Of a stretch of DNA of 40,634 bases, positions 2,786 through 18,073 are shown in pieces. Made by a program: the position numbers and the translations under genes. Within the stretch, counting starts at the first letter, position 1, and each line of letters starts with the position of its first letter. The DNA comes from Nitrospinia bacterium (GTDB lineage Bacteria > Nitrospinota > Nitrospinia > JACRGO01), in assembly GCA_029261755.1 (NCBI GenBank), contig JAJDAS010000068.1:1-40634 (forward strand). The letters are read 5' to 3'. The notes below the pieces were generated by a model. The model saw only the letters and a program-made list of their open reading frames with translations, did no database searches and was not told the origin of the DNA.

Positions 2786-2817
2786 GTTTTAACGGGTAGT
2801 TTACAGGAAGAAAGCAC

Positions 2818-3873: not shown

Positions 3874-3938
3874 AGGTTTTTTGATTTTGCCTTATTTCTA
3901 ATAATTTATTAAAATTTTTTATAGAAAGGAAGTTATAA

Positions 3939-4127
3939 ATGAAAACGAAATATTTATTATTTTCTTTTTTCTTTCTAATTGTAATTTATGGATGTGCGAC
4001 AGGTGGTAAGGTAGGTGGTGATGGTACAGCTACTGGTGGAACGGTGGAGGTTGGTGATATAGATGTATCTCCATGTGTCAATTTGACAGGTTCTACATCT
4101 ACTGGTGATTGCAAAAAGAAGAATTAA
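3939..4127 (+). CDS. Small lipoprotein, Gly-rich (paralogue 2, tandem duplicate)
   Basis: Near-identical signal peptide 'MKTKYLLFSFFFLIVIYGC', mature peptide and upstream leader compared with 3688-3873. Confidence 0.6.
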   Translation: MKTKYLLFSFFFLIVIYGCATGGKVGGDGTATGGTVEVGDIDVSPCVNLTGSTSTGDCKKKN

Positions 4128-4149
4128 TTAAATACTTAAAGGAGGGAAA

Positions 4150-4416
4150 ATGTTTAAAATACGTTTTTATTTTTTTATTTTGATATTAATGGTTTTATCT
4201 TCCTGTGCCATGGGGGGGACTGCTGAAACAGGGACTGGAGAAGGTGGCAAGATTAGTGTTCCTGTAACCGTTATAAAACAAGAAGGTCCAAAACTTGGAT
4301 GGACCTGTTATACCCAGGCTGGCGCCTGTCGAATGAATCAAGGTTGGCCCCTTAATGGTCCATGTACATGTGTTTTCCCTGGTTATGGTCAATTTCCTGG
4401 ACAAGTTGGTAACTAA
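4150..4416 (+). CDS. Small Cys-rich lipoprotein
   Basis: RBS AAAGGAGGG precedes the ATG. Signal peptide ends 'VLSSC'. The mature part carries five further Cys in 'WTCYTQAGACRMNQGWPLNGPCTCVFPGYG'. Confidence 0.55.
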   Translation: MFKIRFYFFILILMVLSSCAMGGTAETGTGEGGKISVPVTVIKQEGPKLGWTCYTQAGACRMNQGWPLNGPCTCVFPGYGQFPGQVGN

Positions 4417-4949
4417 TTGGATTTACAGGACAAACTAGGGATTTGGGTCGGACCAATCTAACGCATTGTTTTTAAAGAAAATTATTTAATTTTTGGGCAT
4501 TAAAACGGTCTTAATTGTAGGTTTTTACCCCAAAAAAGGACGAATTAAGGAAAGTCCGCAAGGAAAGGCTAAAACCTTAAAAAGGCTGCCTCAACCTTGC
4601 GGCTATAGTTCTTAACCTTTTGGAGGGTTTTCCTTCTTTCCAATCAAAAGATTTCGTCAGTGCATCGGAAGCTTGCTGGATGGAATCTTTTGAAAAAAAC
4701 AGAATTTGCTTTAAGCCATCCTTGCCCTCTTTCGAAAATTCCAATTGGTCAATAGGGGGCATTACCATTTCAGATTTATGATTTTAGATTTTTGATTTAA
4801 AAAGGAAAAATAATCAGAAATCGATATCTCTGCCAAAAAACAATTTTCTTGGCATATTCTGAAACCTCTTGATATTATATGTGTTCACGCCTTTAAAACT
4901 AAAAAAACGCTACCCAGCCGTGTTACGCAAAAAATAATGCTATATTTAT

Positions 4950-5264
4950 ATGAGTATAACACCTAATTTCATTCGTAAAGAAGTTGAAGAGCAAAGCTAT
5001 GAAATTTCACTTCATGCAGATGATGAACGCATTGCTGATGAATTAACTGTTGCTCAACTTGAATTCGGATTGCTGAATTGCGAAATCATTGAAGAATACC
5101 CTGATGATCCCCGGGGAGAAAGCTGTTTAGCTTTAGGTTTTCTACATGATAGAATACCTGTCCATATTATTTGCGGTAGAAATCCGATAGGGCGTTTGTT
5201 TCTTATTACAGTTTACATCCCAACCATGCCAAAATGGAAAGATCCATACACAAGGAATTTATAA
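4950..5264 (+). CDS. DUF4258-family protein (putative toxin)
   Basis: Pattern 'EIIEEYPDDPRGESCLALGF...IPVHIICG...LITVYIP...W' is typical of DUF4258 proteins, and the gene is followed by a YgiT-type zinc-finger gene. Confidence 0.7.
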   Translation: MSITPNFIRKEVEEQSYEISLHADDERIADELTVAQLEFGLLNCEIIEEYPDDPRGESCLALGFLHDRIPVHIICGRNPIGRLFLITVYIPTMPKWKDPYTRNL

Positions 5265-5280
5265 AGGAGGTTTTAAAAAA

Positions 5281-5520
5281 ATGGGAAAAGAATATAGTGA
5301 TTGTTACTATTGTGGAGGTTTTGTAGAAGAACGTCTTATCCCCCGTGAAGTTAGATGGAAGGGGCAGTTACTCATTTTTGAAAATGTGCCTATTGGCGTT
5401 TGCACCCAGTGTGGCGAAAAAGTAGTTAAGCCTAAAGTAGCAAAGGAAATTGATCATCTTCTAGAGGGAAATATTCAACCAACAAAAACTATCCAGGTTC
5501 CAGTTTACCAATATGCGTAA
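5281..5520 (+). CDS. YgiT/MqsA-type zinc-finger protein (putative antitoxin)
   Basis: 'CYYCGG...' and 'VPIGVCTQCGEKV' form the two CxxC pairs of the YgiT-type zinc finger. RBS AAGGAGG lies upstream. Confidence 0.7.
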   Translation: MGKEYSDCYYCGGFVEERLIPREVRWKGQLLIFENVPIGVCTQCGEKVVKPKVAKEIDHLLEGNIQPTKTIQVPVYQYA

Positions 5521-5640
5521 GTTTTGCAGCGCTCTGCGTTAAAATTGTTTTTTGTATTGCTCTTATAAAAACTTTGATAGAAAAACAAAGTTACGCAAGT
5601 TTGTAGTACAGATGACACAGAGTGTAAGCATTAAAAATAA

Positions 5641-6717
5641 ATGAACCCACCCAATGCTAAGTATGGAATTACGAGAAAGGTTTTTCTGGAAGGGGTAAAA
5701 GCGGTTGCTTTAGCAAATATACTCCCAGGCCTTTGTTATGCCACGGAACCGGAATTACAAATAGAAATAAAAAGCTTAGAACCATCCTTTCCCATAAGAG
5801 AAAAAGAAGCATACCTCGAAGAAGTTTCCATGTTGTATGGGGAAAAAGTAATGGAAATCATTCGCCCAACCTTAGCACAAACAGGCAAGATACCCTCCCA
5901 TAACGTCAAAGACATCCTCGCCAAAATAAATAGCGAAGTCCTGAAAATCAAAACCAACGACGACATCAGGAAAATCCAGGATTCCCTAGTTAACCGTGGA
6001 TTTTATCTTTTATTCACCTATGAAAATAAAATCGCCCTGGAAGAATCCCTGAAAAACAAATTAAATATTGGAGCTGTTCACGAGTTAAGCATCTACGAGA
6101 TAAAAGCAAAAGAAAAACACAATATATCCATTACCTTACCTGAGGGCTCAAACTACTCAAGCAACTTCTTGTATTTTACCTCTAAACCGAGAAACAGGGA
6201 TTCACTTTGTTGTGCCTGGAGTACAGAGAGTTTGAATATCCAATTTTCGGAAATTATAGAGGAGGGAAAGAAACTTCATGAGGGCGTACATACATTCATA
6301 CGCGAACACTATGGAATTGAACCGGGATTTGAGCCGTTAAGAGATTTCTCAATAAATTTGGATGGGTATAAAAACAGTTTTCCCATGGATCCTTATAATT
6401 ATCACGAAGCGTTGGCCTTAACGGCGGTTCTTATCAAGTCTCCGGACCTAAAGGAATCTTCTTATGGAAACCTTGCCTTTATCCTAAGCCTGGAAGAAAA
6501 CAACCCTGTCTATCATGGCTATGTCTCTAAAATGTACCAGGATATTTGGGACCATTATGTCAAAAAAATATATCCCGGGCTCCCAAAAGCATCCGCTTTA
6601 GCTAAACAAACCATCTTCGATCCCACACCAACCAACAGTCCTTTGAATAATTTGCTAATCAACATGGGGAAGAAAATCTTTACTCAATTGTCCTATCAAA
6701 AAAATAATTTTCACTGA
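5641..6717 (+). CDS. Hypothetical exported protein with HEXXH motif
   Basis: 358 aa. The N-terminal hydrophobic signal-like segment 'ITRKVFLEGVKAVALANILPGLCYA' is only weakly Tat-like (RK rather than RR). 'HEGVH' is encoded at 6277-6291. I recognise no other family signature. Confidence 0.5.
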   Translation: MNPPNAKYGITRKVFLEGVKAVALANILPGLCYATEPELQIEIKSLEPSFPIREKEAYLEEVSMLYGEKVMEIIRPTLAQTGKIPSHNVKDILAKINSEVLKIKTNDDIRKIQDSLVNRGFYLLFTYENKIALEESLKNKLNIGAVHELSIYEIKAKEKHNISITLPEGSNYSSNFLYFTSKPRNRDSLCCAWSTESLNIQFSEIIEEGKKLHEGVHTFIREHYGIEPGFEPLRDFSINLDGYKNSFPMDPYNYHEALALTAVLIKSPDLKESSYGNLAFILSLEENNPVYHGYVSKMYQDIWDHYVKKIYPGLPKASALAKQTIFDPTPTNSPLNNLLINMGKKIFTQLSYQKNNFH

Positions 6718-6739: not shown

Positions 6740-8497
6740 CTATCCTGTTCCACCTTGTTCTTTAACTGCTTCGTTATTTATGGGTAAGAAAAACACGAAG
6801 GTGGTTCCCGAACCAAGCTGACTTTCCGCCTTGATGGAACCTCCATGGGTTTCAATGATTTTTTTCACAATTGCCAAACCAAGTCCGGTACTTTTTTCTC
6901 CACCCGTGGGCTTTGCGCTTAACTTTTGGAATGTACCGAAAAGCTTGCCTTGGTCTTCTTGAGATAAACCAGGCCCTTCGTCCCTGACGCTGACTTTCAC
7001 CATGGAATGCTCTATCTCCATGGATAGGTAAACATTGGAACCCTTGGGAGAGAACTTTATGGCGTTACTTATGAGGTTATCCAGCACTTGAGAAATTTGG
7101 CTTTTATCAAGTGGGATATCCCGGATTTCAGGAAATGACAGGTGAAAAGCCATATTTTTTTTTCTGGCATGAACATCAAAAATGTGGACCCTCTCTCGGC
7201 CCAGCTCGTCAAGAGAACATGGTTCTATATTAAGCTTCAGTTGTCCGCTTTCAATGACGGAAATATCCAAAAGGTGATTTACCAAAGCCAGCATGTGGTC
7301 ACTTGAGGAATAGATAGTTTCTAAAAACTGTTTTTGCTCTTCGGGGGAAAAGTTCCCACCGTCTTCATACAATAGCTCGGAAAATCCGCGTATGTGGCCC
7401 AATGGGTTGCGAAGGTCGTGGGAGGCCATTCCAATAAATTGGTTCTTTAGTTCATTCAGCGCGCGTAAATTTTCATTGGCTTCGCTTAATTCAGTAGTAC
7501 GTTCCTTCACCATTTCCTCCAGCCGAATGTTCTCTTTTTTCGTCCTTTCCAGGTTGATCCGATAAATGGAATAGGTAATGGTTAGAGAGAATAGAATAGT
7601 TAGAAGGGTCGTGGCCACGGCGGTGAAAAAGAGCTTTTGAAGGTTGGCCACATACAAAGTGGCATCGATGAGCAGCATAAGATGGGAGCCTTCAGGGTCG
7701 TTGGGGTTGACGTGGCCGATGATCCGGTAAATATCCTTCCCCTTTTCAGCAGTGAAGCCTCGTTGAGAAATGGTGAACTCAACGCCCAACCTTTTCCCTC
7801 TTCTATCAAGGTTTGTGCTCACCTCCACTTTGCCCTCTCTGTTTAAAATAGCCACTTCCAGGATGCTTTCCGAAGACTTTAAAAAACTCTCCAGAAAGTC
7901 GGAGAAATCAACGGTTTCGAAGACAGACAGGCTGTTGAGGATGGAAGTGGATATTGCGTTTACGAGGTTATAAACATCGGTCCTCATCCGCAATAAAGCC
8001 GCAGATTTGCCTTCTTCCGAGCTATATTCGAATTCGGAAATATCCACAGCCAGATCTATTATGCCAATCAATTCTTTACCTCGTTTCACGGGATGAAAAA
8101 TGGCCAGGACATTAGTCATGTCCCGGATGTCTTGGTAAAAACGGCCAAGGTTTTTTGGGTCCAAAGGATCGAAATCAGGCCGTTGGAACTTTCCCCCAAT
8201 CTCTTTTGCAAACATGGAGTTGAGGATAACGCCATCTTTATTCATATACCGAAACTCAAAAATATCCAGTTCCAAAGAGATGCTTTTGAGCAGGTGCTGT
8301 ATTCCCAACGTATCTTTGATAGCGCTGAACTTGTTAATACTGGAGGAGACGGATTTGTGAACATTTTCGGTGTCAATGCTCAATTGATGGAGGAGAACCC
8401 GTTTTTGGGATATGTAGTTATAAAAAGCCAGTGAAGATAAACAGAGTATGAGGAAGAAGCAGAATATAAAAATATTGTGTTTTTTTATAAATTCCAT
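6740..8497 (-). CDS. Membrane sensor histidine kinase (shared extracytoplasmic sensor domain, paralogue 1)
   Basis: TM1 'IFIFCFFLILCLSSLAF', then an about 260-aa sensor domain, TM2 and a 'YRINLERTKKEN' linker. H-box 'ASHDLRNPL', N-box 'NLISNAIKFSP', G1 'DEGPGL', G2 'GLGLAIVKKI'. Confidence 0.9.
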   Translation of the reverse strand: MEFIKKHNIFIFCFFLILCLSSLAFYNYISQKRVLLHQLSIDTENVHKSVSSSINKFSAIKDTLGIQHLLKSISLELDIFEFRYMNKDGVILNSMFAKEIGGKFQRPDFDPLDPKNLGRFYQDIRDMTNVLAIFHPVKRGKELIGIIDLAVDISEFEYSSEEGKSAALLRMRTDVYNLVNAISTSILNSLSVFETVDFSDFLESFLKSSESILEVAILNREGKVEVSTNLDRRGKRLGVEFTISQRGFTAEKGKDIYRIIGHVNPNDPEGSHLMLLIDATLYVANLQKLFFTAVATTLLTILFSLTITYSIYRINLERTKKENIRLEEMVKERTTELSEANENLRALNELKNQFIGMASHDLRNPLGHIRGFSELLYEDGGNFSPEEQKQFLETIYSSSDHMLALVNHLLDISVIESGQLKLNIEPCSLDELGRERVHIFDVHARKKNMAFHLSFPEIRDIPLDKSQISQVLDNLISNAIKFSPKGSNVYLSMEIEHSMVKVSVRDEGPGLSQEDQGKLFGTFQKLSAKPTGGEKSTGLGLAIVKKIIETHGGSIKAESQLGSGTTFVFFLPINNEAVKEQGGTG

Positions 8498-8676: not shown

Positions 8677-8705
8677 TTGACTTATATACCTCAACCCTAT
8701 ATATT
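8677..8705 (+). promoter_or_regulatory. Candidate sigma70 promoter for the hydrogenase operon
   Basis: TTGACT (8677-8682), a 17-nt spacer, then TATATT (8700-8705), about 45 nt upstream of the small-subunit start. Sequence match only. Confidence 0.4.
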
Positions 8706-8747: not shown

Positions 8748-9656
8748 ATGGGTAAATTTTTGGATAGGAGGGAGTTTCTAAAGTCAATTGGCGTTACCAC
8801 GGCTGGGGTTTCCTTGACTCAGGTATATAATCCCTTGGTGGCCAAAGTCTTTGCCGAGGTCGTGGAAACTGCGCCACCGGTGATCTGGTTCGCTGGGGGG
8901 ACCTGCGGGGGCTGCTCCATTTCGGCTCTGAACGCCATGGACCCTAAGATTGATGAGATTTTACTGAAACTAATCACTCTGCATTACCACATCAATATTA
9001 GCGCGGCCTCTGGCGAAACCCTGATGGAACAGGTCTATGAGGTTATGGAAAAGCATAAAGGAAAATATATTTATGTTCAGGAGGGGGTTATTTCCACAGC
9101 CGCCGAGGGCCGTTTTTGCATAGTGGGAGATTATAAAGGAAAGAAAATCACCATGGTTCAATTGGCCCGGGAGTTGGCTAAAAACGCCCAGGCCGTAGTG
9201 GCTGCGGGAAGTTGCCCTTCCTTTGGTGGTATTCCCTCCGCCAATCCCAACCCAACCGGTGTCAAGCCGTTAAGTGAGTTCACTGACAAGCCGGTGCTGA
9301 ATATTCCAGGTTGCCCTGTTCACCCTGACGATATTTTCGGATCCTTGATCTATTATTTGAAAAACGGACTTCCCGAGCTGGATAAACTGAATCGCCCCAA
9401 ACTGTTTTTTGGCGAAAGTATTCACCAGAAATGTTTTCTCAAGCCTCAATTCGATGCGGAAAATCTGGCTGAGAATTTCGGAGAACAAGGAAAATGCTAC
9501 GCTCTTATGGGATGCTTGGGGCCCAAAACCTATTGCAATTCCTGGAAACGAGGATGGAATGGAAATACCAATTGGTGCGTGAAAAGCGGATCTCACTGCA
9601 TTGCCTGCACGGAACCGACTTTTGCCAAAACCAGATCAGGCCTTTACGCATATTAA
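8748..9656 (+). CDS. [NiFe] hydrogenase small subunit, Tat-exported
   Basis: Twin-arginine signal 'DRREFLKSIGVTTAG'. FeS ligand patterns 'GGTCGGCS', 'GSCPSFGG', 'PGCPVHP', 'HQKC...GKCYALMGC' and 'NWCVKSGSHCIAC'. No C-terminal TM anchor. Start chosen at ATG 8748 (RBS AAGGAGG 8731-8737) rather than the track start 8712. Confidence 0.9.
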   Translation: MGKFLDRREFLKSIGVTTAGVSLTQVYNPLVAKVFAEVVETAPPVIWFAGGTCGGCSISALNAMDPKIDEILLKLITLHYHINISAASGETLMEQVYEVMEKHKGKYIYVQEGVISTAAEGRFCIVGDYKGKKITMVQLARELAKNAQAVVAAGSCPSFGGIPSANPNPTGVKPLSEFTDKPVLNIPGCPVHPDDIFGSLIYYLKNGLPELDKLNRPKLFFGESIHQKCFLKPQFDAENLAENFGEQGKCYALMGCLGPKTYCNSWKRGWNGNTNWCVKSGSHCIACTEPTFAKTRSGLYAY

Positions 9657-9671
9657 AGGGAGGAAAAATAA

Positions 9672-11105
9672 ATGAAAGAAAATAGTTCTAAGAAAAAGGT
9701 TATTACTGTTGATCCGGTGGGCAGAACCGAAGGACATCTTGGGATCACCATCACCATCGAAAACAACAAGGTCACAAGCGCCCAGGCCTTCAGTCCGGTT
9801 TATAGAGGATTCGAAAAAATTATGATCGGCCGCGATCCCAGGGAGGCCCAGGACCTGCCTACTCGAATTTGCGGCGTTTGTCCCATGGTGCATTCCGTCT
9901 GCGGCAATAAAAATCTTGAGATGTTATTCGGCGAGCCTTTTAACGAAAATGCCAGGTTGATGCGAAATATTTCTCACGGCACTCATATGATTGGAGACCA
10001 TGCCCTTCATTTTTTTCATCTGGCGGCCCTGGACTTCGTCAAGGGTCCGGATAAGCCACCTTTTATTCCGAGATACGGCGATGATTTTCGAATTCCCAAA
10101 AAAGAGAATGATGAAATCGTTGGGCACTACATCCAGGCCCTGGAAATCAGGCGGATAGCCCAGGAGGCCGCCACCATCTTTGCCGGCAAACTTCCCCATG
10201 CCATTACTTTCGTTCCAGGTGGCATGACGGAGACGCCCACCAAGGAAAAGATCGCCGCATGGAAAGAACGGTTCAATAAGATGAAGGCGTTCGTAAACGA
10301 CGTCTGGATCAAGGACGTGGAGGCTGTGGCCAAGTTTTATCCCGACTACGCAACAATCGGGAGCGGTCCATCAGACTATTTGAGTTTTGGCGTTTTTGAA
10401 TTGGATAACAAAGACACCAAGCATTACCACAAGCGCGGCTCCTTTATTGACGGCAAATATGAGGAATTGGATATCAAACGTATTACGGAAGATGTCACCC
10501 ATACCTGGCAGGATGGAAAAGATAACAAGAACCCCTTTGACCCGGACACGAAAACAGCGAATCCCGATAAAAAAGATGCTTATAGCTTTATTACAGCCGC
10601 CCGTTATAAGGATCGGGCCATGGAGGTCGGACCTTTCGCCCGTATGAAGGTAGACGGAAAAATGAAGGGACATTCTTCGGTTTTAAACCGCCACATGGCG
10701 CGGGTCCTGGAGGCGCAACATTTGATCCACGGTCTGGAAGAATGGGTGGACGCCTTGGCATTGGGAGAATCGGGAATGATCGAACAAATGCCCGTTCCGG
10801 ATGAGGGTACGAGTTATGGTTTGTCCGAAGCCCCCAGGGGCGCTTGCGGTCACTGGATGAAAGTGAAGGGTGGGAAAATTTCCCATTGGCAGGCCATTCC
10901 AGCCACCAACTGGAACGGTTCCCCCAGGGACGCCAAAGGAAACCTGGGGCCCTTTGAATTGGCTTTAATGGATACACCCATTGCCGATCCCAACGTTCCG
11001 GTGGAGGCCATGAGGGTGGTTCGGTCCTTTGATCCATGCATGGCTTGTGCGGTTCATGTAATTACTCCCGATAGGGATTTGGGGAAGTTTGTCGTGGTAC
11101 CCTAA
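9672..11105 (+). CDS. [NiFe] hydrogenase large subunit
   Basis: N-terminal Ni-Fe ligand motif 'RICGVCPMVH' and C-terminal 'DPCMACAVH', followed by a 15-aa tail (VITPDRDLGKFVVVP) of the kind removed by the maturation protease. 477 aa. RBS GGGAGG upstream. Confidence 0.92.
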   Translation: MKENSSKKKVITVDPVGRTEGHLGITITIENNKVTSAQAFSPVYRGFEKIMIGRDPREAQDLPTRICGVCPMVHSVCGNKNLEMLFGEPFNENARLMRNISHGTHMIGDHALHFFHLAALDFVKGPDKPPFIPRYGDDFRIPKKENDEIVGHYIQALEIRRIAQEAATIFAGKLPHAITFVPGGMTETPTKEKIAAWKERFNKMKAFVNDVWIKDVEAVAKFYPDYATIGSGPSDYLSFGVFELDNKDTKHYHKRGSFIDGKYEELDIKRITEDVTHTWQDGKDNKNPFDPDTKTANPDKKDAYSFITAARYKDRAMEVGPFARMKVDGKMKGHSSVLNRHMARVLEAQHLIHGLEEWVDALALGESGMIEQMPVPDEGTSYGLSEAPRGACGHWMKVKGGKISHWQAIPATNWNGSPRDAKGNLGPFELALMDTPIADPNVPVEAMRVVRSFDPCMACAVHVITPDRDLGKFVVVP

Positions 11106-11182
11106 GGCCTGATTGAGTTTAAAAGAGCATGCGATCCTTAGCGGGGAGAGAAGCCAAAACCAAAAAGAACTAATAAAGTAAT

Positions 11183-11325
11183 AATTTAACGCAGAGGTGC
11201 AGAGAACGCAGAGGCAAACAATAGTGACAAGTAACGAGTGACAAGAAAAACCTGCCGTTACTTGTTACTCGTTACTTGTTACTGCTTTTTTCTCTGCGTC
11301 CTCCGCGACCTCTGCGTTAAAATTG
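11183..11325. repeat. Long imperfect hairpin / REP-like composite repeat
   Basis: Outer arms aatttaacgcagagg (11183-11197) and cctctgcgttaaaattg (11309-11325). Inner arms gtgacaagtaacgagtgacaag (11224-11245) and cttgttactcgttacttgttac (11261-11282) are built of heptamer-like GTNACNA repeats. The element lies between the large-subunit gene and the Uma2 gene. Confidence 0.75.
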
Positions 11326-11398
11326 TCTTCCTTTTTATGGTTCCTTTAAAACTTTAGTTTGAGAAATATTTTTTTTGTCAGTTAACGGAGGACTGTAA

Positions 11399-11959
11399 AT
11401 GCAAACCGCTATCCAAGAAAAGACATATACCTATGAGGATTACCTGGAGACGCCAGACGACAAAAGGTATGAACTCATAAAGGGGGAGTTAATTATGACG
11501 CCAGCACCAAAGCCCTATCATCAATGGATTTCGGAAAACATCCAGTTTGAATTAGGGAAATTTGTCAGGCAAAAAAAAATGGGTAAGGTCTTTGATTCCC
11601 CATGCGATGTTTATTTTGACAATGAAAATGTCCTACAACCGGATATCCTTTTTATTGCAAAGGAAAGACTCGGCATTATTGGCGAAAAGAATATCCATGG
11701 GGCTCCTGATCTTGTTATCGAAATACTGTCCGAGTCAACGGCATATAGGGACCTGGTTCAAAAGAAAAAAATCTACGCGAAATTCGGGGTAAAAGAATAC
11801 TGGATAGTGGACCCTGGAGAAAAAAACGTGGAATTACATGTTTTAAAAGAAGAGTTGTTTGAGCTTGCCGGGCGATTCTCAGAAAATGAAATTTTTCAAT
11901 CCGTGCTGCTTGATGGATTTACCATGAATCTTGAGGATATTTTCACTTCCTGGAAATAA
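11399..11959 (+). CDS. Uma2-family (DUF820) restriction-endonuclease-like protein
   Basis: 'YTYEDYLETPDDKRYELIKGELIMTPAP', 'QPDILFI', 'GAPDLVIEILSEST' and 'KKKIYAKFGVKEYWIVDP' match the Uma2 family pattern. Confidence 0.8.
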   Translation: MQTAIQEKTYTYEDYLETPDDKRYELIKGELIMTPAPKPYHQWISENIQFELGKFVRQKKMGKVFDSPCDVYFDNENVLQPDILFIAKERLGIIGEKNIHGAPDLVIEILSESTAYRDLVQKKKIYAKFGVKEYWIVDPGEKNVELHVLKEELFELAGRFSENEIFQSVLLDGFTMNLEDIFTSWK

Positions 11960-11964
11960 AAATA

Positions 11965-12432
11965 TTGAAAAAAATCCTGGTCCTTGGAATCGGCAATCTG
12001 GTTCAGTCCGATGACGGTTTCGGGGTCCACATAATACGGGAATTGCTCAAGGAAAAAGACACTCTCCCACCCAATGTGGATTTACTGGACGGAGGAACAT
12101 CCATTGTTGACCAAATGGGAGATCTGGCGAACGCCGACCGGTTAATCTGCATAGATGTGGTGGAAGGGGGCGGGGCTCCCGGAACCATCTACCGCTTTAA
12201 ACCGGAAGACATCACATACAAAAAAAGCAAATTCCACCACGCCCATAAGATCTCCATTTTCGACACCCTGGAAATGGTCCGCCATATGAGCAACAAAGCC
12301 CCGGAGGCCATTATTATTGCCGTCCAGCCTGGAAATATTGACTGGGGAACGGAACTTTCCCAGACCCTGAAAAATTCGATCCCGCAAGTACTGGAAATAA
12401 TCCGAAATGAAATTGCGGAAGCACTGGTTTAA
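11965..12432 (+). CDS. [NiFe] hydrogenase maturation endopeptidase (HyaD/HybD/HoxM family)
   Basis: 'KILVLGIGNLVQSDDGFGVH', 'LDGGTSIVD' and 'HHAHKIS' are typical of the family. TTG start. The large subunit carries a cleavable C-terminal tail. Confidence 0.8.
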   Translation: MKKILVLGIGNLVQSDDGFGVHIIRELLKEKDTLPPNVDLLDGGTSIVDQMGDLANADRLICIDVVEGGGAPGTIYRFKPEDITYKKSKFHHAHKISIFDTLEMVRHMSNKAPEAIIIAVQPGNIDWGTELSQTLKNSIPQVLEIIRNEIAEALV

Positions 12433-12490
12433 CATTATCAGGAATTTTTGGCGCGAAAAATGTTCTCACTTTATCTTTCCAGCTATACTA

Positions 12491-12587
12491 AAACCAATTT
12501 GATTTTCGGTTTTTAAAATCAAATTTTGGTTGCAGTTAATGCTTAGCAATTGGTTTCGCTAATTTTAAGATACCGAAAACCAATTGC
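12491..12587. promoter_or_regulatory. Two adjacent inverted repeats sharing an AAACCAATT half-site (candidate operator)
   Basis: IR1: aaaccaatttgatttt (12491-12506) and aaaatcaaattttggtt (12515-12531). IR2: gcaattggtttcg (12546-12558) and cgaaaaccaattgc (12574-12587). That gives four AACCAAT-type half-sites about 90-185 nt upstream of the tetrahaem cytochrome start. Confidence 0.4.
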
Positions 12588-12675
12588 GGTAGAGTATAAA
12601 TGCTTGAAGATATGCACCCTGCATAATATACATAGCAAATCGAACCTGAACTTTATTTATTTTCGGAGAAATGTA

Positions 12676-13275
12676 ATGTCCCCAAAAAAATCTTTTTACT
12701 TTTTCTTTTTTATAGCCAGCTTGTTTTCAGTGTTATCATCCTTTGCTCCATGCTATGCCGAAGACGAGCGTATAGAAATAGAACTGAAGGATACCGCTCC
12801 CATGGCCAATCCCCTGAAGTACGCCCTGGGAGATGCAGAGTATGATAAGGCTATTAAATCCGGAGAATATTCCTACTCCGGAAATTTAAAGTGTCGGTTA
12901 TGCCACCGGGATTTCTTCATGGGTCGGAAAAAAGATCTGCATGAACATACCTTCAAAAAAAGTGTAAAGAAGCATCGGAAGGAAACCCGTTGCTTTCCTT
13001 GCCACAGCACCGGATACGGTATTGAGTCGGGCTTCACCAGTTTGAAAGAGACCCCAAAACTCGCCAATGTTCAATGCGAGGGGTGCCATGGCCCAGGAAG
13101 TAAACATAACATACTTGGCGCCAAGGGCGGCTTCTTGGCCGGGACCGATAAACCCGGCACCATTAAGAAAATGTGCCAAGCCTGCCACAACGCTAGATGG
13201 GACAAGTCTTATAAGGATGTTAACGCCGCATATGAGGTGTATAAAAACGCCGAGGCCGCCGCTACGTTGAAATAA
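12676..13275 (+). CDS. Tetrahaem c-type cytochrome (periplasmic), copy A
   Basis: Signal peptide, then four CXXCH motifs: CRLCH, CFPCH, CEGCH, CQACH. Start taken at ATG 12676 (RBS GGAGA). The track ORF start at 12550 lies in the regulatory repeats and has no signal-peptide logic. Confidence 0.88.
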   Translation: MSPKKSFYFFFFIASLFSVLSSFAPCYAEDERIEIELKDTAPMANPLKYALGDAEYDKAIKSGEYSYSGNLKCRLCHRDFFMGRKKDLHEHTFKKSVKKHRKETRCFPCHSTGYGIESGFTSLKETPKLANVQCEGCHGPGSKHNILGAKGGFLAGTDKPGTIKKMCQACHNARWDKSYKDVNAAYEVYKNAEAAATLK

Positions 13276-13318
13276 CCCAAACCCAGTTTGCAGGAAAGAA
13301 ATGTCCAAGGAGAAACCC

Positions 13319-14470
13319 ATGCGAAAATTAACTATTGCTTTTTTGTTCCCGCTCATGTTTTTTGCTTTTGCCCTTTCCTCTCTTTCAGCTCAAGCGGAAA
13401 AATCCGACCTTGTAAAGCCGGAAAAAAGCCTGGATCTGGACACTCCTGTAGATTGTGGAGAGTGCCATAAAAGGATTTACGAAGAGTGGGTGGGAACCAT
13501 GCACGCGCACTCTACTCCCGCAAAAAACCCCATGGTAAAGGCGTACTATGATTTTTTGCTTAAGGAAAATTACGACACCAGCAAATGCGATAAATGCCAT
13601 GTGCCGTTTCGAGCGCTCTATCCCGAGGAAAAGGATAAAAACGCGAAACTTTTTATGGACGGAGTAAGCTGCCTCTTTTGCCATTCCGTCCATGGGAAAA
13701 ATTCCGGGGACAACCAGGGGATCGATTACTATAAACTGGATTTTTTTAAACCGATCACCGGTCCCACCAAAACCGATAAAAGCGCACATGATTCCAAATT
13801 CCTGGGTTTGTATAAACATGTGGATATATGCTCCGGTTGCCATCAAAGCGGGGAAGCGGAATATTATGCCGAGGGAAAATCCAAGTCTTTGTGCCAGCAA
13901 TGCCACATGCCTTCCATGAGAAAGGTTAAGTCGGCTAAGAATGGGCCTGTACGGGAAAAGGTCTACCAGCATCTTTTCGAAGGGGGGCATTCCCCAATAT
14001 TACTCAGCATGGCCGCAATAATCGAAGGGAAGGCCCAAAAAAAAGACGGCAAAACTATCCTCCATTTAAAGCTGGAAAACTTGTCTCTTCACCGCATTCC
14101 TATTGGATTTCCCTTGCGAGCCATATATGTGAAGGTGACGGCTCTCGATGAAAATGACAATCCCATTTGGTCCAATTATAAAGAACACCCGAAAAACGAA
14201 GACCCCAAAAGCTATTTTGCCCTTTCCTATCCCGAAGAAGAGGCAGTCTATGTGCACTTCGTTAAAAATATTAAGCCGATTAAAGACACCCGTCTGGAAG
14301 CCGCATCTATAAAAAAACTGAGTTATGACGTATCTTCGGACAAAATTGCGGCATTTCAAGTAAAACTCTTTTATCGCCTGTTGCCTGAGTCAGTACAAAA
14401 AAAACTGAATATGGATGAAGCAGTCGCCCAGGAGACGTTGATGTCTGAAGAAACAATAACTATTGATTAG
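13319..14470 (+). CDS. Pentahaem c-type cytochrome with about 170-aa haem-free C-terminal domain, copy A
   Basis: Signal peptide 'MRKLTIAFLFPLMFFAFALSSLSAQA'. Five CXXCH motifs: CGECH, CDKCH, CLFCH, CSGCH, CQQCH. The C-terminal half has no Cys. Start at ATG 13319 (RBS AAGGAGA 13307-13313), matching the N-terminus of the paralogue at 22007. Confidence 0.88.
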   Translation: MRKLTIAFLFPLMFFAFALSSLSAQAEKSDLVKPEKSLDLDTPVDCGECHKRIYEEWVGTMHAHSTPAKNPMVKAYYDFLLKENYDTSKCDKCHVPFRALYPEEKDKNAKLFMDGVSCLFCHSVHGKNSGDNQGIDYYKLDFFKPITGPTKTDKSAHDSKFLGLYKHVDICSGCHQSGEAEYYAEGKSKSLCQQCHMPSMRKVKSAKNGPVREKVYQHLFEGGHSPILLSMAAIIEGKAQKKDGKTILHLKLENLSLHRIPIGFPLRAIYVKVTALDENDNPIWSNYKEHPKNEDPKSYFALSYPEEEAVYVHFVKNIKPIKDTRLEAASIKKLSYDVSSDKIAAFQVKLFYRLLPESVQKKLNMDEAVAQETLMSEETITID

Positions 14471-14537: not shown

Positions 14538-14957
14538 ATGGCGGAAATAACCGCTGATTTTGAAGGCACTTTAGATAAGTTCATGGGTGACGGCGTAATG
14601 GTTTTTTTGGGTGATCCCAAATCGCCCAGTATTGATAAAGATGCTAAAAAGTGTGTTCAAATGGCCATTGAGATGCAAAAAGAGGCCAAGAAAATGAATA
14701 TGGGTGTTCGAATCGGTATTAATTCAGGAATGTGTACGGTGGGGAATTTTGGCAGTAAAAATCGAATGGATTATACAATTATCGGAAGTACCGTCAATCT
14801 TGCGGCTCGTTTGGAAAGAAGCTCCGAACCCGGGCAAATTTCGATTTCCGATTCAACATACCAACTGGTCAAGGACGCGCTTCCTTGTACTCCGAGGGAA
14901 AGTATAACGGTAAAAGGAATTGAAGGTGAGATTGTAACCTATTGGGTTGATGGGTAA
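14538..14957 (+). pseudogene. Truncated class III adenylate/guanylate cyclase catalytic domain (C-terminal part only)
   Basis: The 139-aa ORF begins at 'DKFMGDGVMVF' (second metal Asp region) and continues through 'RIGINSGMCTVGNFGS', 'YTIIGSTVNLAARLE' and 'ITVKG'. The first beta-strand with the FxDIxGFT-type metal Asp is absent, and an in-frame stop lies just upstream of the ATG. Confidence 0.5.
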
Positions 14958-15164: not shown

Positions 15165-17681
15165 ATGGAATTCTTTAAAAAACATAATCTTACCATCCTC
15201 TGCCTAACTCTCATCATTTGTCTGTCCTCCCTGGCTGCATATAACTATTTCCATCAAAAGGAAATTCTCCTCCAACAGTTAAACGTGGATACGGACAGCA
15301 TTGTCCAGTCCGTTACTTCCAGTATTACCAAGTTTACTGCCATCAAGGACCTGATGAATATTCAGGACCTGATTAAGAACATCTCTTTGAAATTGGACAT
15401 TTTTGAATTTCGTTATTTAGATAAAGACGGAATTATCCTCAATTCCATGTTTATCGAGGAAATAGGGGAAAAATTTGAGCGGCCCAATTTCGATCTCTCG
15501 GACCCCAAAAACCTTGGCCGGTTTTACCAGGATGAGCGTGATATGACCAATGTCCTTGCCATTTCCTACCCGGTCAAAGGTGGAGGGCAGGTGCTTGGCA
15601 TCATCGACCTGGCTGTGGATATATCCGAGTTTGATTACACTTCCGAAGAGGTCAAAGAGGCATCCGTTTTAAGGATGCAAACAGACGTAAATAATTTGCT
15701 AAATGCCATTTCAAGTTCTGTTCTCTCCAGCCTCTCCATTTTCGAGACGGTGGATTTTTTTGATTTTCTGAATGCCTTCATCAAGTCCACGGAGAATATT
15801 GTGGAAGTTGCGTTATTGAATAAAGAAGGACAAGTCATGGTCAGCAGCAATCCGGAAAGGGCAGGAAAAGAACTGGGAAAAGAGATCACTGACATCCAAA
15901 GGGGCTTTTTGGTTGAAAATGGAAGAGATGTTTACCGGATCATAGACCACATTGATCCAAAACAACCGGAAGGAAATCACTTGATGCTGCTTATGGACGC
16001 CACATCGTATGTAGCCAACGTGAGACAAATGCTTTTAACGGCCATAGCGGTTTCTCTCTTTACCATTGTATTTGCCCTGACCATAGCCTATTCCATTTAC
16101 CGCATCAATTTGGAAAGGGCGAAAAAGGAAAACCTCCGCCTGGAAACCATGGTCAAGGAAAGAACCAAAGAGTTAAAAAAAGCCAATGAACGCTTGAAAG
16201 AGCTGGACCAGGTTAAATCCGACTTTTTGTCCACCGTTTCCCATGAACTGAGGACGCCCCTCACCTCTGTGGTGGGATTCGCGAAGATTATTAAGAAAAA
16301 ACTTGAGGAAACCATTTTCCCTGTTATTCAGACCGAGGACAAAAAAGTTAAACGGGCTGTAAAACAGGTGGGAGGAAATGTTTCCATTATAGCCCAAGAA
16401 GGGGAAAGGCTTACGACTCTGATAAACGATGTGCTTGACCTGGCAAAAATGGAGGCGGGAAAAATCGAATGGAACATGGAAACTCTGTCCATAACGGAAG
16501 TAGTGGAAAGGGCAACCGCAGCTACCTCTGCCCTCTTGGAACATAAGGATGTTGAGTTCGTTAAGGAATTCGAAGATGGACTGCCCGAGGTAGAGGTAGA
16601 TAAGGACAAGCTGATACAGGTTGTGATCAATATGATCTCCAACGCGGTGAAATTTACGGACCAGGGGTCTGTTACCTGCAAGACGGAAAGAAGAAATGGT
16701 GAGATTGTGGTTAGTGTGTTAGACACGGGCCCGGGAATACCCCAGGAGGATTTGCCGAAGGTATTTGAAAAGTTCAAACAAGTGGGGGATACTCTCACGG
16801 ATAAACCTAAGGGGACGGGCCTGGGACTTCCCATCTGCAAGCAAATCGTGGAGCATCACGGCGGTAAAATATGGGCGGAGAGTGAGGTCGGCAAGGGAAG
16901 CAAGTTCTCTTTTAACATCCCGGTGACAGCGATTTCCGAAAAGGCGACAGAGACAATAGATGTTGAGGATATGAGTGCCTTCTTTAAGCGAGTCAAGGAT
17001 CATGTGGTGTCCACCGAAACCGCGTCTCATGACGGCAAGAAAACCGTCTTGGTCGTGGATGATGAGCCGTCTATTCGCGAGCTGTTAAGGCAGGAACTTG
17101 AGAGCACGGGATACTTAGTTAAAGAAGCTGTGGACGGAATCGATGCGGTGAAACAGGTGAAAGAGCAGCTACCGGACTTGATCATCATGGACGTAATGAT
17201 GCCGCACATGACCGGTTTTGACGCAGCAGCGGTTTTAAGGAATGACCCCCTTACCGCTTCCATCCCTATCGTTATTCTCTCCATAATACAAGACAAGGAA
17301 AGGGGGCGTCGTCTTGGGATCGACCGGCACCTCAGCAAACCCGTCAATATGGAGGAGCTTCTTAAAGATGTCGGCACCTTAACTCACAAAATGGGTTCGG
17401 CGAAAAAAGCCCTGATTATCGATAGTGACAAAAATACGGTAAACACTCTTAGGTATGCCCTAAAAGCCAAAGGGTATATGGTGGAAGGGGCTTATAGCGG
17501 GCCGGAGGGACTGGAAAGGGCCAGGGCCATTGCCCCCGATATGATTGTGGTGGACTCCCTTATCTCGGAACAGCATAGTATCGTAAAAACCCTGCGCTTT
17601 GAAAAAGGGTTTGAAGATGTTGTTTTCCTGTATTTATCGGAAGACCAAAAAAAGAATCTGGAAAATTTAGATGTCACATAA
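15165..17681 (+). CDS. Hybrid sensor histidine kinase (shared sensor domain, paralogue 2) with two C-terminal receiver domains
   Basis: The N-terminal about 330 aa are paralogous to 6740-8497 and 24498-26987. H-box 'SHELRTPL', N 'NMISNAVKFT', G1 'DTGPGI', G2 'GTGLGLPICKQI'. REC1: 'VLVVDDEP...IIMDVMMPHMTG...SKP'. REC2 ('ALIIDSD...MIVVDSL') stops before the conserved Lys region and looks degenerate or truncated. Confidence 0.9.
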   Translation: MEFFKKHNLTILCLTLIICLSSLAAYNYFHQKEILLQQLNVDTDSIVQSVTSSITKFTAIKDLMNIQDLIKNISLKLDIFEFRYLDKDGIILNSMFIEEIGEKFERPNFDLSDPKNLGRFYQDERDMTNVLAISYPVKGGGQVLGIIDLAVDISEFDYTSEEVKEASVLRMQTDVNNLLNAISSSVLSSLSIFETVDFFDFLNAFIKSTENIVEVALLNKEGQVMVSSNPERAGKELGKEITDIQRGFLVENGRDVYRIIDHIDPKQPEGNHLMLLMDATSYVANVRQMLLTAIAVSLFTIVFALTIAYSIYRINLERAKKENLRLETMVKERTKELKKANERLKELDQVKSDFLSTVSHELRTPLTSVVGFAKIIKKKLEETIFPVIQTEDKKVKRAVKQVGGNVSIIAQEGERLTTLINDVLDLAKMEAGKIEWNMETLSITEVVERATAATSALLEHKDVEFVKEFEDGLPEVEVDKDKLIQVVINMISNAVKFTDQGSVTCKTERRNGEIVVSVLDTGPGIPQEDLPKVFEKFKQVGDTLTDKPKGTGLGLPICKQIVEHHGGKIWAESEVGKGSKFSFNIPVTAISEKATETIDVEDMSAFFKRVKDHVVSTETASHDGKKTVLVVDDEPSIRELLRQELESTGYLVKEAVDGIDAVKQVKEQLPDLIIMDVMMPHMTGFDAAAVLRNDPLTASIPIVILSIIQDKERGRRLGIDRHLSKPVNMEELLKDVGTLTHKMGSAKKALIIDSDKNTVNTLRYALKAKGYMVEGAYSGPEGLERARAIAPDMIVVDSLISEQHSIVKTLRFEKGFEDVVFLYLSEDQKKNLENLDVT

Positions 17682-17692
17682 GGAGAAATGAA

Positions 17693-18073
17693 ATGCCAAA
17701 GATATTGATCGTGGATGATGAACCTCACATCAGGCTTCTTTTGGAGCAGACCCTGGAAGAGTTTGAGGATGAAGGTGTTGATATTTTAATCGCCGAAAAT
17801 GGGGAGGCTGGCCTGGAGCTGATCAAGTCGGAAAAACCGGAATTGGTTTTTCTGGACGTGATGATGCCAAAAATGAATGGTTTTGAGGTGTGCGACACAG
17901 TAAAAAACAAGTTGGGAATGAAGGACGTTCATATCATCATGCTTACGGCCAAGGGGCAGGAGTTCGACAAAGAAAAAGGGGCAGAGGTAGGTTGCGACTT
18001 GTATTTAACCAAACCTTTTGATCCGGATCATATCGTGGAAAAGGCTTCGGAGGTTTTGGGAATGGAATTGTAG
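17693..18073 (+). CDS. Single-domain (CheY-like) response regulator
   Basis: 'KILIVDDEPHIR', 'VFLDVMMPKMNG', 'IMLTAKG', 'YLTKPF'. 126 aa. Starts 12 nt after the hybrid kinase stop. Confidence 0.9.
   Translation: MPKILIVDDEPHIRLLLEQTLEEFEDEGVDILIAENGEAGLELIKSEKPELVFLDVMMPKMNGFEVCDTVKNKLGMKDVHIIMLTAKGQEFDKEKGAEVGCDLYLTKPFDPDHIVEKASEVLGMEL

Follow-up and report, generated by a model that had tools for sequence, protein, structure and literature searches.

Gene organization of the hydrogenase locus

We have analysed a stretch of 40,634 nucleotides (the window) of contig JAJDAS010000068.1 from a Nitrospinia bacterium, in which the genes for a soluble, exported [NiFe] hydrogenase are followed by genes for its maturation endopeptidase, a tetrahaem cytochrome (cytA) and a pentahaem cytochrome (cytB), and are flanked by sensor kinase genes (Table 1). 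A sequence-only reading of this region had described a Tat-exported small subunit without a C-terminal anchor, a short large subunit with standard ligand motifs and a dedicated endopeptidase, the absence of b-type cytochrome and HybA-like genes, and a same-strand cluster ending with the two cytochromes. Each of these observations was confirmed in our analysis.

Table 1. Features in and around the hydrogenase cluster of the window
Positions	Strand	Feature
6740-8497	-	HK1, sensor histidine kinase, divergent from the hydrogenase genes: TM, ~270-aa periplasmic dCache-type domain (SENS), TM, HisKA, HATPase
8677-8705	+	Promoter-like site (TTGACT-17-TATATT) ahead of the small-subunit gene
8748-9656	+	[NiFe] hydrogenase small subunit, 302 aa; Tat signal DRREFLK, no C-terminal anchor; proximal cluster 4 Cys, medial cluster 4 Cys, distal cluster His plus 3 Cys
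9672-11105	+	[NiFe] hydrogenase large subunit, 477 aa; RICGVCPMVH, EAPRG and DPCMACAVH motifs, 15-aa cleavable tail (residues 463-477); Cys at the position that is Sec in [NiFeSe] enzymes
11399-11959	+	Uma2-family (DUF820) nuclease-like gene, inserted between the large-subunit and protease genes
11965-12432	+	HycI/HybD-type maturation endopeptidase, 155 aa, TTG start
12676-13275	+	cytA1, soluble periplasmic tetrahaem cytochrome, c554-like, 199 aa, Sec signal peptide, 4 CXXCH
13301-14470	+	cytB1, soluble periplasmic pentahaem cytochrome of the T. tepidum c552 / ExtKL family, 389 aa, 5 CXXCH, C-terminal non-haem domain
14538-14957	+	Truncated class III nucleotide cyclase domain, likely remnant of a receiver-cyclase gene
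15165-17681	+	HK2, hybrid sensor kinase: SENS, HisKA, HATPase, receiver
17693-18073	+	Single-domain (CheY-like) response regulator, 126 aa
21339-24498	+	Second cytochrome cassette without a hydrogenase: cytA2 (21339-21950), cytB2 (22007-23164), cytB3 (23320-24498; first haem site CX4CH)
24498-26987	+	SENS domain fused to a CheA-like kinase core (Hpt and HATPase); start overlaps the cytB3 stop by one base
28963-30387		Intact receiver-cyclase gene

The start of the small-subunit gene is supported by an AGGAGG sequence 10 nt upstream and by the promoter-like site, although the latter is a pattern match only (10 of 12 consensus positions). Accordingly, the mechanically listed ORF from 8712 is probably too long, and the listed ORF of cytA1 from 12550 is also over-long. 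Pfam scans of the larger ORFs between 0.5 and 31.7 kb and of 37267-37983 revealed no b-type cytochrome and no HybA-like gene, the remaining ORFs, in particular 31744-37218, 38328-40634 and the small ORFs at 3.3-5.6 kb, being outside these scans.

The cluster in the window is interrupted. A 293-nt gap, the Uma2 insertion (Pfam Uma2, E 1e-37), a 243-nt gap before cytA1 and the cyclase fragment before HK2 break the gene series, and co-transcription here is therefore unproven. The Uma2 gene was absent from the same position in the related loci L001, L002, L004, L006 and L009 (L numbers denote loci of hydrogenase relatives), indicating that the insertion is specific to this lineage. The cyclase fragment matched only positions 55-182 of the 183-position Pfam Guanylate_cyc profile and is 30% identical to the cyclase part of the intact receiver-cyclase.

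Sequence features of the hydrogenase subunits

The small subunit matched Pfam Oxidored_q6 and NiFe_hyd_SSU_C, and its best NCBIfam match was the NiFeSe small subunit. The protein ends level with the soluble small subunit of Dm. baculatum, the TIGR00391 profile was matched only to position 306 of 365, and no hydrophobic stretch lies in the last 80 residues (maximum KD19 0.2). The large subunit matched PF00374 at 373.6 bits and NF033181 at 514.5 bits, which is below the equivalog cut-off of 600, and it carries the RxEGH and PRG residues in addition to the Ni-Fe ligand motifs. The endopeptidase matched PF01750 and TIGR00072 (134.6 bits).

In searches of PDB sequences, both subunits showed the highest similarity to the periplasmic [NiFeSe] hydrogenases of Desulfovibrio vulgaris Hildenborough (DvH) and Desulfomicrobium baculatum. 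The best large-subunit hits were those of DvH (E 6e-108), and the protein is about 41% identical to DvH HysA. The large subunits of the solved [NiFeSe] chains have 484-507 residues and thousands of relatives of 470-490 aa exist, indicating that 470-510 aa is the norm for the [NiFeSe]-like (HydDB group 1a) family. The statement of the sequence-only reading that typical group 1 large subunits are considerably longer is true of the Hya, Hyb and Desulfovibrio [NiFe] types (534-603 aa among the solved chains), but it is not true of the lineage to which this enzyme belongs. In the phylogenetic tree, on the other hand, the enzyme fell in a well-separated deep clade within this family (13 rows, SH-aLRT 100, stem length 0.69), which is known only from metagenomes, and the nearest named MAG is labelled Nitrospinota.

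Cytochromes conserved with the hydrogenase

Every clade member with readable context carries the same cytochrome pair. Orthologues of cytA and cytB accompany the hydrogenase in L001, L002/L003, L004, L006/L008 and L009, with the protease in three different positions. Gene order is thus shuffled between members, indicating that the pair is conserved with the enzyme. In locus L171, cytA lies beside a cytB-hypCDE-hypB-hypF string.

The two cytochromes are not novel folds. cytA1 matched Pfam Cytochrome_C554, and the cytA family profile hit cytochrome c554 of Nitrosomonas europaea (1bvb) at E 7e-10. The AF2 model of cytA was poor (pLDDT 64). Apart from the haem motifs, cytA has only two invariant His and a near-invariant Met for its four haems. 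cytB1 matched the pentahaem cytochrome c552 of Thermochromatium tepidum (PDB 5ze8) at E 4.6e-30 with the single sequence and 7e-52 with the profile, and it also hit NCBIfam ExtKL. In the second cassette, cytA2 is 77% identical to cytA1, and cytB2 and cytB3 are each 56% identical to cytB1.

A shared sensor domain beside the cytochrome genes

Pfam found HisKA and HATPase_c in HK1, and the AF2 model of its residues 1-300 (pLDDT 84) gave Foldseek hits that were mainly dCache ligand-binding domains (prob 1.0). HK2 is 52% identical to HK1 over 606 columns, and the SENS part of the CheA-like protein is 81% identical to HK2 and 65% to HK1. The window holds three SENS proteins, each beside cytA/cytB genes. 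The response regulator after HK2 was matched by a receiver query, and no DNA-binding domain fits in its length.

In five of six clade lineages, a sensor gene lies on the same strand just after the cluster. In L001 the operon SSU-LSU-HycI-cytA-cytB-MCP has gaps of -1 to 26 nt, and the sensor domain of this MCP is 47% identical to HK1 residues 1-351 (E 8e-110). L009 has a SENS hybrid kinase downstream. L004 and L006 end in other MCPs, 3 and 50 nt after the last cluster gene, which carry different sensor domains (dCache/PAS in L004, NIT in L006), whereas L002/L003 have the hydrogenase and both cytochromes but no sensor nearby.

SENS was also found apart from hydrogenases, in diguanylate cyclases of Campylobacterota and Gammaproteobacteria. 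All 4 SENS-GGDEF loci examined (Nitrosophilus alvini, Sulfurimonas and two Gammaproteobacteria) have a cytA orthologue directly upstream, 45-53% identical to cytA1, with spacing from a 4-nt overlap to 62 nt and with no hydrogenase nearby. In addition, 17 contig sizes were shared between the best 120 SENS matches and the best 120 cytA matches. Other clades of the same hydrogenase family are also tied to chemoreceptors. Of 13 MCP genes in 80 loci, 10 lie on the same strand within 6 kb downstream of hydrogenase genes, 7 of them within 36 nt.

Discussion

We consider that the genes at 8748-14470 encode a soluble, Tat-exported, catalytically complete [NiFe] hydrogenase, the natural Cys form of the short [NiFeSe]-like lineage. 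This identity is shown directly by the sequence and we hold it with high confidence, whereas the electron path and the sensor coupling described below are inferred from conserved gene neighbourhood alone. In the likely electron path, H2 would be split in the periplasm and electrons would leave through three [4Fe-4S]-type clusters to the co-encoded c554-like cytA and the low-potential-type cytB, which would take the place of the type I c3 of Desulfovibrio, and from there reach the periplasmic cytochrome pool. The T. tepidum relative of cytB is described as low-potential (PMC11976967).

The sensor coupling is more uncertain, and we regard it as about as likely as not. cytA belongs to a family that is otherwise the fixed operon partner of the SENS domain with interchangeable outputs, and SENS kinases flank this cluster. 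Accordingly, the redox state of cytA, set by H2 oxidation, may be read by HK1, HK2 and the SENS-CheA-like kinase, which would feed the receivers and the receiver-cyclase downstream. This hints at a way to sense hydrogen outside the cytoplasm. The outputs that do not bind DNA (GGDEF, MCP, CheA-like) argue that cytA is an input to the sensor and not a gene that the sensor regulates. However, the enzyme looks like a working uptake enzyme and does not resemble known H2 sensors, and the other sensor domains in L004 and L006 indicate that no single docking partner explains all cases. Taken as a whole, an uptake hydrogenase whose cytochrome acceptor also reports to sensors is our preferred reading, by a narrow margin over its being wrong.

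The sequence-only reading had proposed either an unusual compact lineage with a novel cytochrome pair as acceptor or an exported enzyme feeding the adjacent sensor kinases, and this interpretation was supported in part. The compact lineage is not supported as stated, because the length is ordinary, although the clade is separate. The enzyme's own cytochrome pair as acceptor is supported by synteny that survives shuffled gene order, and the link to the kinases gains real comparative support but remains an inference. Two outcomes named beforehand as contrary to this reading were not observed, since the large-subunit clade is not a characterised one with these partners and the cytochromes are conserved next to homologous hydrogenases.

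Other explanations can be considered, each of which we find less likely. A purely respiratory module, in which the hydrogenase, cytA and cytB feed H2 electrons into the cytochrome pool for energy conservation while the neighbouring kinases and chemoreceptors sense small ligands at their Cache or NIT domains and are merely co-located or co-regulated, is the strongest of these, but still unlikely in our view. The catalytic architecture with a maturation protease, the respiratory role of the closest characterised relatives, which donate to soluble cytochromes (HydDB), the missing sensor in L002/L003 and the differing sensor domains of L001, L004 and L006 are consistent with it. On the other hand, it does not explain why cytA orthologues are coupled to SENS-GGDEF genes in distant phyla with no hydrogenase present, and the sensor gene after the cluster in five of six lineages and the enzyme-free cytA-cytB-cytB-SENS-CheA cassette in the window also speak against it.

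Conversely, the hydrogenase may exist mainly to report H2 to the SENS kinases through cytA/cytB, as a periplasmic, cytochrome-mediated counterpart of HoxBC-HoxJ with no significant energetic role. The cluster lies inside a dense signalling island of three SENS kinases, CheY-like receivers, a receiver-cyclase and a Crp-like regulator, and MCPs occur both in relatives and in other clades of the family. However, the tail, the protease and the standard clusters are not sensor-like, cytB and L002/L003 fit an electron-transfer role, and the electrons need a sink in any case, so we consider this improbable. Slightly more doubtful still is that cytA-SENS is a gas or ligand sensor (NO, O2, CO or sulfide binding to an open haem), comparable to H-NOX, NosP or sCache_heme systems, and that the hydrogenase clade has only borrowed cytA as an electron acceptor, in which case the sensors would not report H2. 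The c554-like character of cytA, its few invariant distal ligands and the recent demonstration that haem-carrying Cache sensors behave as NO sensors (PMC12889525) favour this possibility, but haem ligation cannot be read from sequence, and a ligand-sensing cytochrome placed in the hydrogenase operon would still be reduced by the enzyme.

Comparison with known systems

The closest known enzymes are the periplasmic [NiFeSe] hydrogenases HysAB of DvH and Dm. baculatum (PDB 2wpn, 5jsu, 1cc1, 4kl8; HydDB group 1a), which share with the present enzyme the short large subunit, the Tat-exported small subunit without an anchor, the 4-Cys medial cluster, the C-terminal tail with a dedicated protease, and a soluble multihaem acceptor without cytochrome b. 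The present enzyme differs in having Cys in place of Sec as nickel ligand, in its low identity and separate deep clade with scores below the NCBIfam equivalog cut-offs, in its c554-like and c552/ExtKL-type partners in place of type I c3, and in the attached sensor genes. It also has no Cys in the N-terminal region of the large subunit that could carry a lipid anchor as reported for DvH.

The regulatory group 2b [NiFe] hydrogenases (HoxBC-HoxJ of Cupriavidus necator, HupUV-HupT) are likewise encoded with a histidine kinase and are the only established precedent for sensing H2 through an enzyme (HydDB; PMC6978683). Those enzymes are cytoplasmic, lack a Tat signal, the C-terminal tail and the protease, and bind the kinase directly, whereas the enzyme here is exported and tail-bearing, and any link to the kinase would run through cytochromes and a periplasmic dCache domain.

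Among cytochromes, c554 of N. europaea (PDB 1bvb, 1ft5) is a tetrahaem periplasmic shuttle that takes electrons from a soluble periplasmic oxidoreductase, but its similarity to cytA is remote and covers only about half of the protein, and cytA is paired with a hydrogenase or with a sensor, not with hydroxylamine oxidoreductase. cytB shows full-length homology, including the five CXXCH and the C-terminal non-haem domain, with the T. tepidum c552 / Geobacter ExtKL / cable-bacteria PHC family, in which c552 has no assigned function (PMC11976967) and for which our literature searches found no report of a hydrogenase partner. Finally, the pattern seen for cytA with SENS, a small haem protein in an operon with a sensor whose output module varies, recalls the accessory-protein-dependent sensors, namely the H-NOX and NosP genes beside kinases, GGDEF proteins or MCPs, TorC-TorS, the haem-MCP DcrA and the sCache_heme sensors (PMC12889525). 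In the present case, however, the haem protein is a separate four-haem cytochrome and the sensor is a cofactor-less dCache domain, with the interaction between them being inferred.

Sequence features and classification of the hydrogenase

The plus strand of the window from 8748 to 14470 carries six genes, which encode the two subunits of a [NiFe] hydrogenase, a Uma2-family protein, a maturation endopeptidase, and two multihaem cytochromes. The small subunit (302 aa) most likely starts at the ATG at 8748, since AGGAGG lies 10 nt upstream and a promoter-like site precedes it, although promoter and terminator scans of the stretch gave fewer hits than shuffled sequence and prove nothing. The subunit has the Tat motif DRREFLK at residues 6-12, ends where the soluble Dm. 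baculatum subunit ends, and has no hydrophobic C-terminal segment. The large subunit has RICGVCPMVH, the conserved RxEGH and PRG residues, and DPCMACAVH followed by a 15-residue tail, and a HycI-family endopeptidase gene is present. The Tat signal (RRxFxK), the RxCGxCxxxH and DPCxxCxxH ligand motifs, the C-terminal tail, and the specific endopeptidase are those of group 1 (periplasmic uptake) [NiFe] hydrogenases. Of the gas-channel residues typical of regulatory hydrogenases, only the Val in RICGVC, which is of the standard type, could be read directly. Pfam scans of the larger ORFs between 0.5 and 31.7 kb, plus the ORF at 37267-37983, found no b-type cytochrome or HybA-like gene among the ORFs scanned. 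Accordingly, what the sequence-only reading had observed, a soluble periplasmic [NiFe] hydrogenase with a short large subunit, no cytochrome b, and its own tetra- and pentahaem cytochromes, is confirmed.

Features of the window and their positions
Feature	Position	Strand	Description
Group II intron RNA domains	44-299		Rfam RF02005, 126 bits
Reverse transcriptase/maturase ORF	492-1934		follows the group II intron RNA domains
HK1	6740-8497	-	kinase with the SENS periplasmic domain
Promoter-like site	8677-8705		TTGACT-17-TATATT
Small subunit	8748-9656	+	[NiFe] hydrogenase
Large subunit	9672-11105	+	[NiFe] hydrogenase
Uma2-family gene	11399-11959	+	between large subunit and protease
Endopeptidase	11965-12432	+	HycI/HybD type
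cytA1	12676-13275	+	tetrahaem cytochrome
cytB1	13301-14470	+	pentahaem cytochrome
HK2	15165-17681		hybrid kinase with the SENS periplasmic domain
Acido-Lenti-1 RNA motif	20025-20070	-	Rfam RF01687; two inverted copies, 48.9 and 41.8 bits
Acido-Lenti-1 RNA motif	20177-20222	+	the other copy of the pair
Three tandem receiver genes	27107-31690		same atypical receiver; outputs kinase plus receiver, class III cyclase, and kinase
Crp-like regulator	37267-37983	-	cNMP-binding

Both subunits matched the periplasmic [NiFeSe] hydrogenases of D. vulgaris Hildenborough (DvH) and Dm. baculatum best among the PDB sequences. For the large subunit, the E-values run from 6e-108 to 4e-100 and the solved chains are 484-507 residues long, whereas the Desulfovibrio [NiFe], Hyb, and Hya types follow at lower scores and are 534-603 residues. 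A search of 5.8 billion proteins returned thousands of homologues, and nearly all of the best 120 listed are 470-490 aa, from Omnitrophota, Planctomycetota, Syntrophomonadaceae, Pelotomaculum, and others. Accordingly, the short large subunit is the family norm, and we rejected it as a novelty. NCBIfam ranks the NiFeSe models first, and the small subunit has the fourth medial-cluster Cys (NWC) typical of [NiFeSe] enzymes. The pattern TYC...NWC...HC..AC is conserved in the clade and aligns with the Dm. baculatum small subunit, so that all three clusters are inferred from their ligands to be of the 4Fe-4S type. The one defining [NiFeSe] feature that is missing is selenocysteine, since the first Cys of DPCMAC is encoded by an ordinary Cys codon in an open frame. 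Judged from these sequence relationships, the enzyme is therefore a [NiFe] member of HydDB group 1a, which HydDB describes as 'Periplasmic ... [NiFeSe] variants' (PMC5037454).

On the other hand, the enzyme belongs to a distinct clade. Identity to DvH HysA is about 41%, and all NCBIfam equivalog cut-offs are missed: the large subunit scores 514.5 bits against 600 and 471.6 against 780 with the [NiFeSe] models (NF033181 / NF045518), and the small subunit 310.7 against 470. In a maximum-likelihood tree of 95 large subunits, the window groups with 12 sequences from metagenomes (56-82% identity) with SH-aLRT 100 on a stem of 0.69 substitutions per site, and the rest of the family, including DvH HysA, lies on the other side. 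The nearest named source is a groundwater MAG labelled Nitrospinota, at 75-84% identity, whose gene is split over two contig ends. In other members of the family, namely the loci L027/L028 (Desulforudis sp. Tu-874), L019, L031, L037, L042 (Syntrophomonas zehnderi), and L043, an in-frame TGA replaces the second Cys of the N-terminal RxCGxC motif (RICGV*P, about residue 64 of the large subunit), and the frame stays open to a normal DPCxxCxxH end. This may be a selenocysteine at an unusual Ni-Fe ligand position, not the C-terminal position used by Desulfovibrio [NiFeSe] enzymes.

Conservation of the cytochrome pair

Every clade member with readable context, namely the loci L001, L002/L003, L004, L006 (=L008), and L009, carries orthologues of both cytochromes next to the hydrogenase. 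The gene order varies between SSU-LSU-HycI-cytA-cytB, SSU-LSU-cytA-cytB-HycI, and SSU-LSU-cytA-HycI-cytB, which argues for selection and not mere inheritance of a block. In a further locus, L171, a cytA orthologue (62% identity) lies beside a string of cytB-hypC-hypD-hypE-...-hypB-hypF. The Uma2 gene between the large subunit and the protease occurs only in the window. In L001, the closest long relative, a second small hydrogenase (398-aa large subunit, 173-aa small subunit) lies just upstream at 1068-6599 (minus strand), together with hypA, a cobW/hypB-like gene, two radical-SAM genes (one fused to HupF/HypC), and a CheA gene.

Neither cytochrome is a new fold. cytA has four CXXCH motifs and matches Pfam PF13435 at 43.4 bits against a cut-off of 20.8, and its family profile matches N. 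europaea cytochrome c554 (1bvb) at E 7e-10; the AF2 model of cytA is poor (pLDDT 64, with the haem regions below 50). cytB has five CXXCH motifs and a C-terminal non-haem domain, and is a full-length homologue of the pentahaem c552 of T. tepidum (PDB 5ze8; E 4.6e-30 with the single sequence across residues 50-369, 7e-52 with the profile) and of ExtKL, although the NCBIfam ExtKL hit scores 35.6 bits, below its cut-off of 250. The T. tepidum c552 is described as low-potential, and the family has a solved structure but no assigned role (PMC11976967). A metagenome scan with the cytB alignment returned one true relative (L088, with the same arrangement as L001), and the other 79 loci are remote pentahaem cytochromes at 20-30% identity with neither a hydrogenase nor a consistent sensor, indicating that cytB proper is rare and that the wider family says nothing about partners.

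Association with sensor genes

The two kinases flanking the cluster, HK1 and HK2, share an N-terminal module of a TM helix, about 270 periplasmic residues, and a second TM helix (52% identity over the whole alignment), and we call the periplasmic part SENS. The AF2 model of SENS (pLDDT 84.3) shows a long N-terminal helix followed by two PAS-like alpha/beta modules, and the listed Foldseek hits are mainly dCache ligand-binding domains at probability 1.0, for example Mlp24, PctA/B, TlpC, and DctB, though TM-scores are only 0.2-0.4 and Pfam gave only faint or sub-threshold Cache hits. In L001, whose large subunit is 80% identical, the operon is tight, with gaps of -1 to 26 nt, and ends in a methyl-accepting chemotaxis protein (MCP) whose N-terminal 351 residues are 47% identical to HK1 (E 8e-110). 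L004 ends in a dCache/PAS chemoreceptor 3 nt after cytB, L006 ends in a NIT chemoreceptor 50 nt after HycI, and L009 has a SENS hybrid kinase 4.5 kb downstream. Only L002/L003 show no sensor.

Further along the window, after a repeat-rich spacer holding the two inverted Acido-Lenti-1 copies, there is a second cassette without a hydrogenase, which consists of cytA2 (77% identical to cytA1), cytB2, cytB3, and a SENS domain fused to a CheA-like kinase whose start overlaps the cytB3 stop. HK1, HK2, and the CheA-like fusion have no CXXCH, and a direct haem-sensor mechanism, as in the Omnitrophota and deltaproteobacterial MCPs, is therefore excluded here. The receiver regions of the three tandem genes are 37-52% identical pairwise. 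Together with the Crp-like regulator, this suggests a route from phosphorelay to cyclic nucleotide to transcription downstream of the SENS kinases. In the Nitrospinota MAG (L024, 2837-5914), a 1025-aa protein with cNMP-binding, GAF, sigma-54 activator, and then 4Fe-4S domains lies upstream of the orthologous hydrogenase, and is a possible transcriptional end-point for a cyclic-nucleotide signal.

In the reciprocal direction, a search with SENS alone returned the two orthologues of the Nitrospinota MAG, the L001-type chemoreceptor, and about 110 SENS-GGDEF proteins of roughly 510 aa from Sulfurimonas, Sulfuricurvum, Nitrosophilus, Hydrogenimonas, and Gammaproteobacteria. All four such loci that could be read have a cytA orthologue directly upstream on the same strand, with 45-53% identity to cytA1, four CXXCH, gaps from a 4-nt overlap to 62 nt, and no hydrogenase nearby. 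In addition, at least 17 contig sizes are shared between the SENS and cytA hit lists, of which only the best rows were compared. Thus, cytA plus SENS is a conserved two-gene module whose output varies between GGDEF, kinase, hybrid kinase, CheA-like kinase, and chemoreceptor. Most of these outputs do not control transcription, and the simplest reading is that cytA is an input component of the sensor, as with H-NOX or NosP modules.

In the wider family, 80 loci from species-representative genomes (1.26 Mb) contain 13 chemoreceptor genes, of which ten lie on the same strand within 6 kb downstream of the hydrogenase genes, seven of them within 36 nt. In Omnitrophota/PVC loci, the order is SSU-LSU-HycI-MCP-cytochrome, where the MCP carries one periplasmic CXXCH and the cytochrome is a distant relative of cytA. 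In L007, L014, and L015 this cytochrome is a small tetrahaem protein, and in the small subunits of these three loci the first Cys of the proximal-cluster motif is Asp (GQSDSGCS in place of GxxCxGCS). In a deltaproteobacterial/Myxococcota clade (MAG loci L056, L064, L065, L072, L080, and L081), the order is LSU-SSU-MCP, and the MCP has one periplasmic CXXCH. The large subunit of this sensor-like periplasmic hydrogenase ends exactly at the His of DPCIACAVH, with no tail and no protease nearby, as in regulatory hydrogenases, yet the small subunit keeps a Tat RR motif.

Discussion

The sequence itself shows an exported, anchor-less, catalytically complete Cys-type group 1a hydrogenase, whereas the electron path and any sensing step are inferred from conserved gene neighbourhood. 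A low-potential soluble cytochrome is a sensible acceptor for a hydrogenase. We consider it likely that electrons from H2 pass to cytA and cytB, although this is an inference from synteny. That the redox state of cytA is read by SENS domains, so that the cluster would report H2 or periplasmic redox to HK1, HK2, the SENS-CheA-like kinase, and the downstream receivers and receiver-cyclase, is in our view about as likely as not. The interpretation in the sequence-only reading, either an unusual compact lineage using a novel cytochrome pair as acceptor or an exported enzyme feeding the adjacent sensor kinases, is partly supported: compactness is ordinary, whereas the conserved new acceptor pair and the repeated wiring to sensors, through a cytochrome that is itself a sensor partner, are of real interest.

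Against the sensor coupling, the enzyme looks like a working uptake enzyme, L002/L003 lack a sensor, and L004 and L006 carry other sensor domains. The cluster in the window is also interrupted by the Uma2 insertion, a 243-nt gap, and a cyclase fragment, and the only sequencing runs found to hold the stretch are three DNA runs from a biofilm metagenome, with no RNA runs. In addition, cytA has only two invariant extra His and one near-invariant Met for four haems, so it might instead sense a ligand such as NO (compare PMC12889525). We regard it as unlikely that sensing is the main purpose of the system.

A bolder possibility, which we hold only tentatively, is that the cluster is the input end of an undescribed periplasmic H2-sensing relay. 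In this view, the exported hydrogenase would reduce cytA, with cytB as wire or sink, and reduced or oxidised cytA would then dock on the cofactor-less predicted dCache domain SENS and switch whatever output is fused to it, namely a histidine kinase and a CheA-like kinase here, a chemoreceptor in L001, and diguanylate cyclases in Campylobacterota, where cytA would report general periplasmic redox state. This would make cytA-SENS a new class of cytochrome-dependent redox receptor, and this hydrogenase clade its H2-specific version. Literature searches, which reached few subscription journals, found no description of a chemoreceptor- or cytochrome-linked periplasmic [NiFe] hydrogenase, nor of a cytA-SENS module. 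The locus offers a concrete, testable set of parts, namely an exported hydrogenase, two soluble cytochromes, and one sensor domain with swappable outputs, and the cytA-SENS pair also occurs in cultivable H2 and sulfur oxidisers (Nitrosophilus alvini, Sulfurimonas, and Hydrogenimonas), where genetics is feasible. Even on the conservative reading, the analysis defines a new subclade of group 1a hydrogenases with a new acceptor pair, and gives a first functional context, as a hydrogenase partner, to the pentahaem c552/ExtKL family.

In comparison with known systems, the enzyme shares with the [NiFeSe] hydrogenases the short large subunit and the fourth medial-cluster Cys, but has Cys in place of selenocysteine and scores below the curated cut-offs of that family. 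The cytoplasmic regulatory hydrogenase with its kinase (group 2b) is the only established way in which bacteria sense H2, and no bacterial receptor for external H2 has been characterised. Whereas the group 2b enzymes have a small subunit without a Tat signal and a large subunit that ends at the His of the C-terminal motif, the hydrogenase described here has the Tat signal, the 15-residue tail, and the protease.
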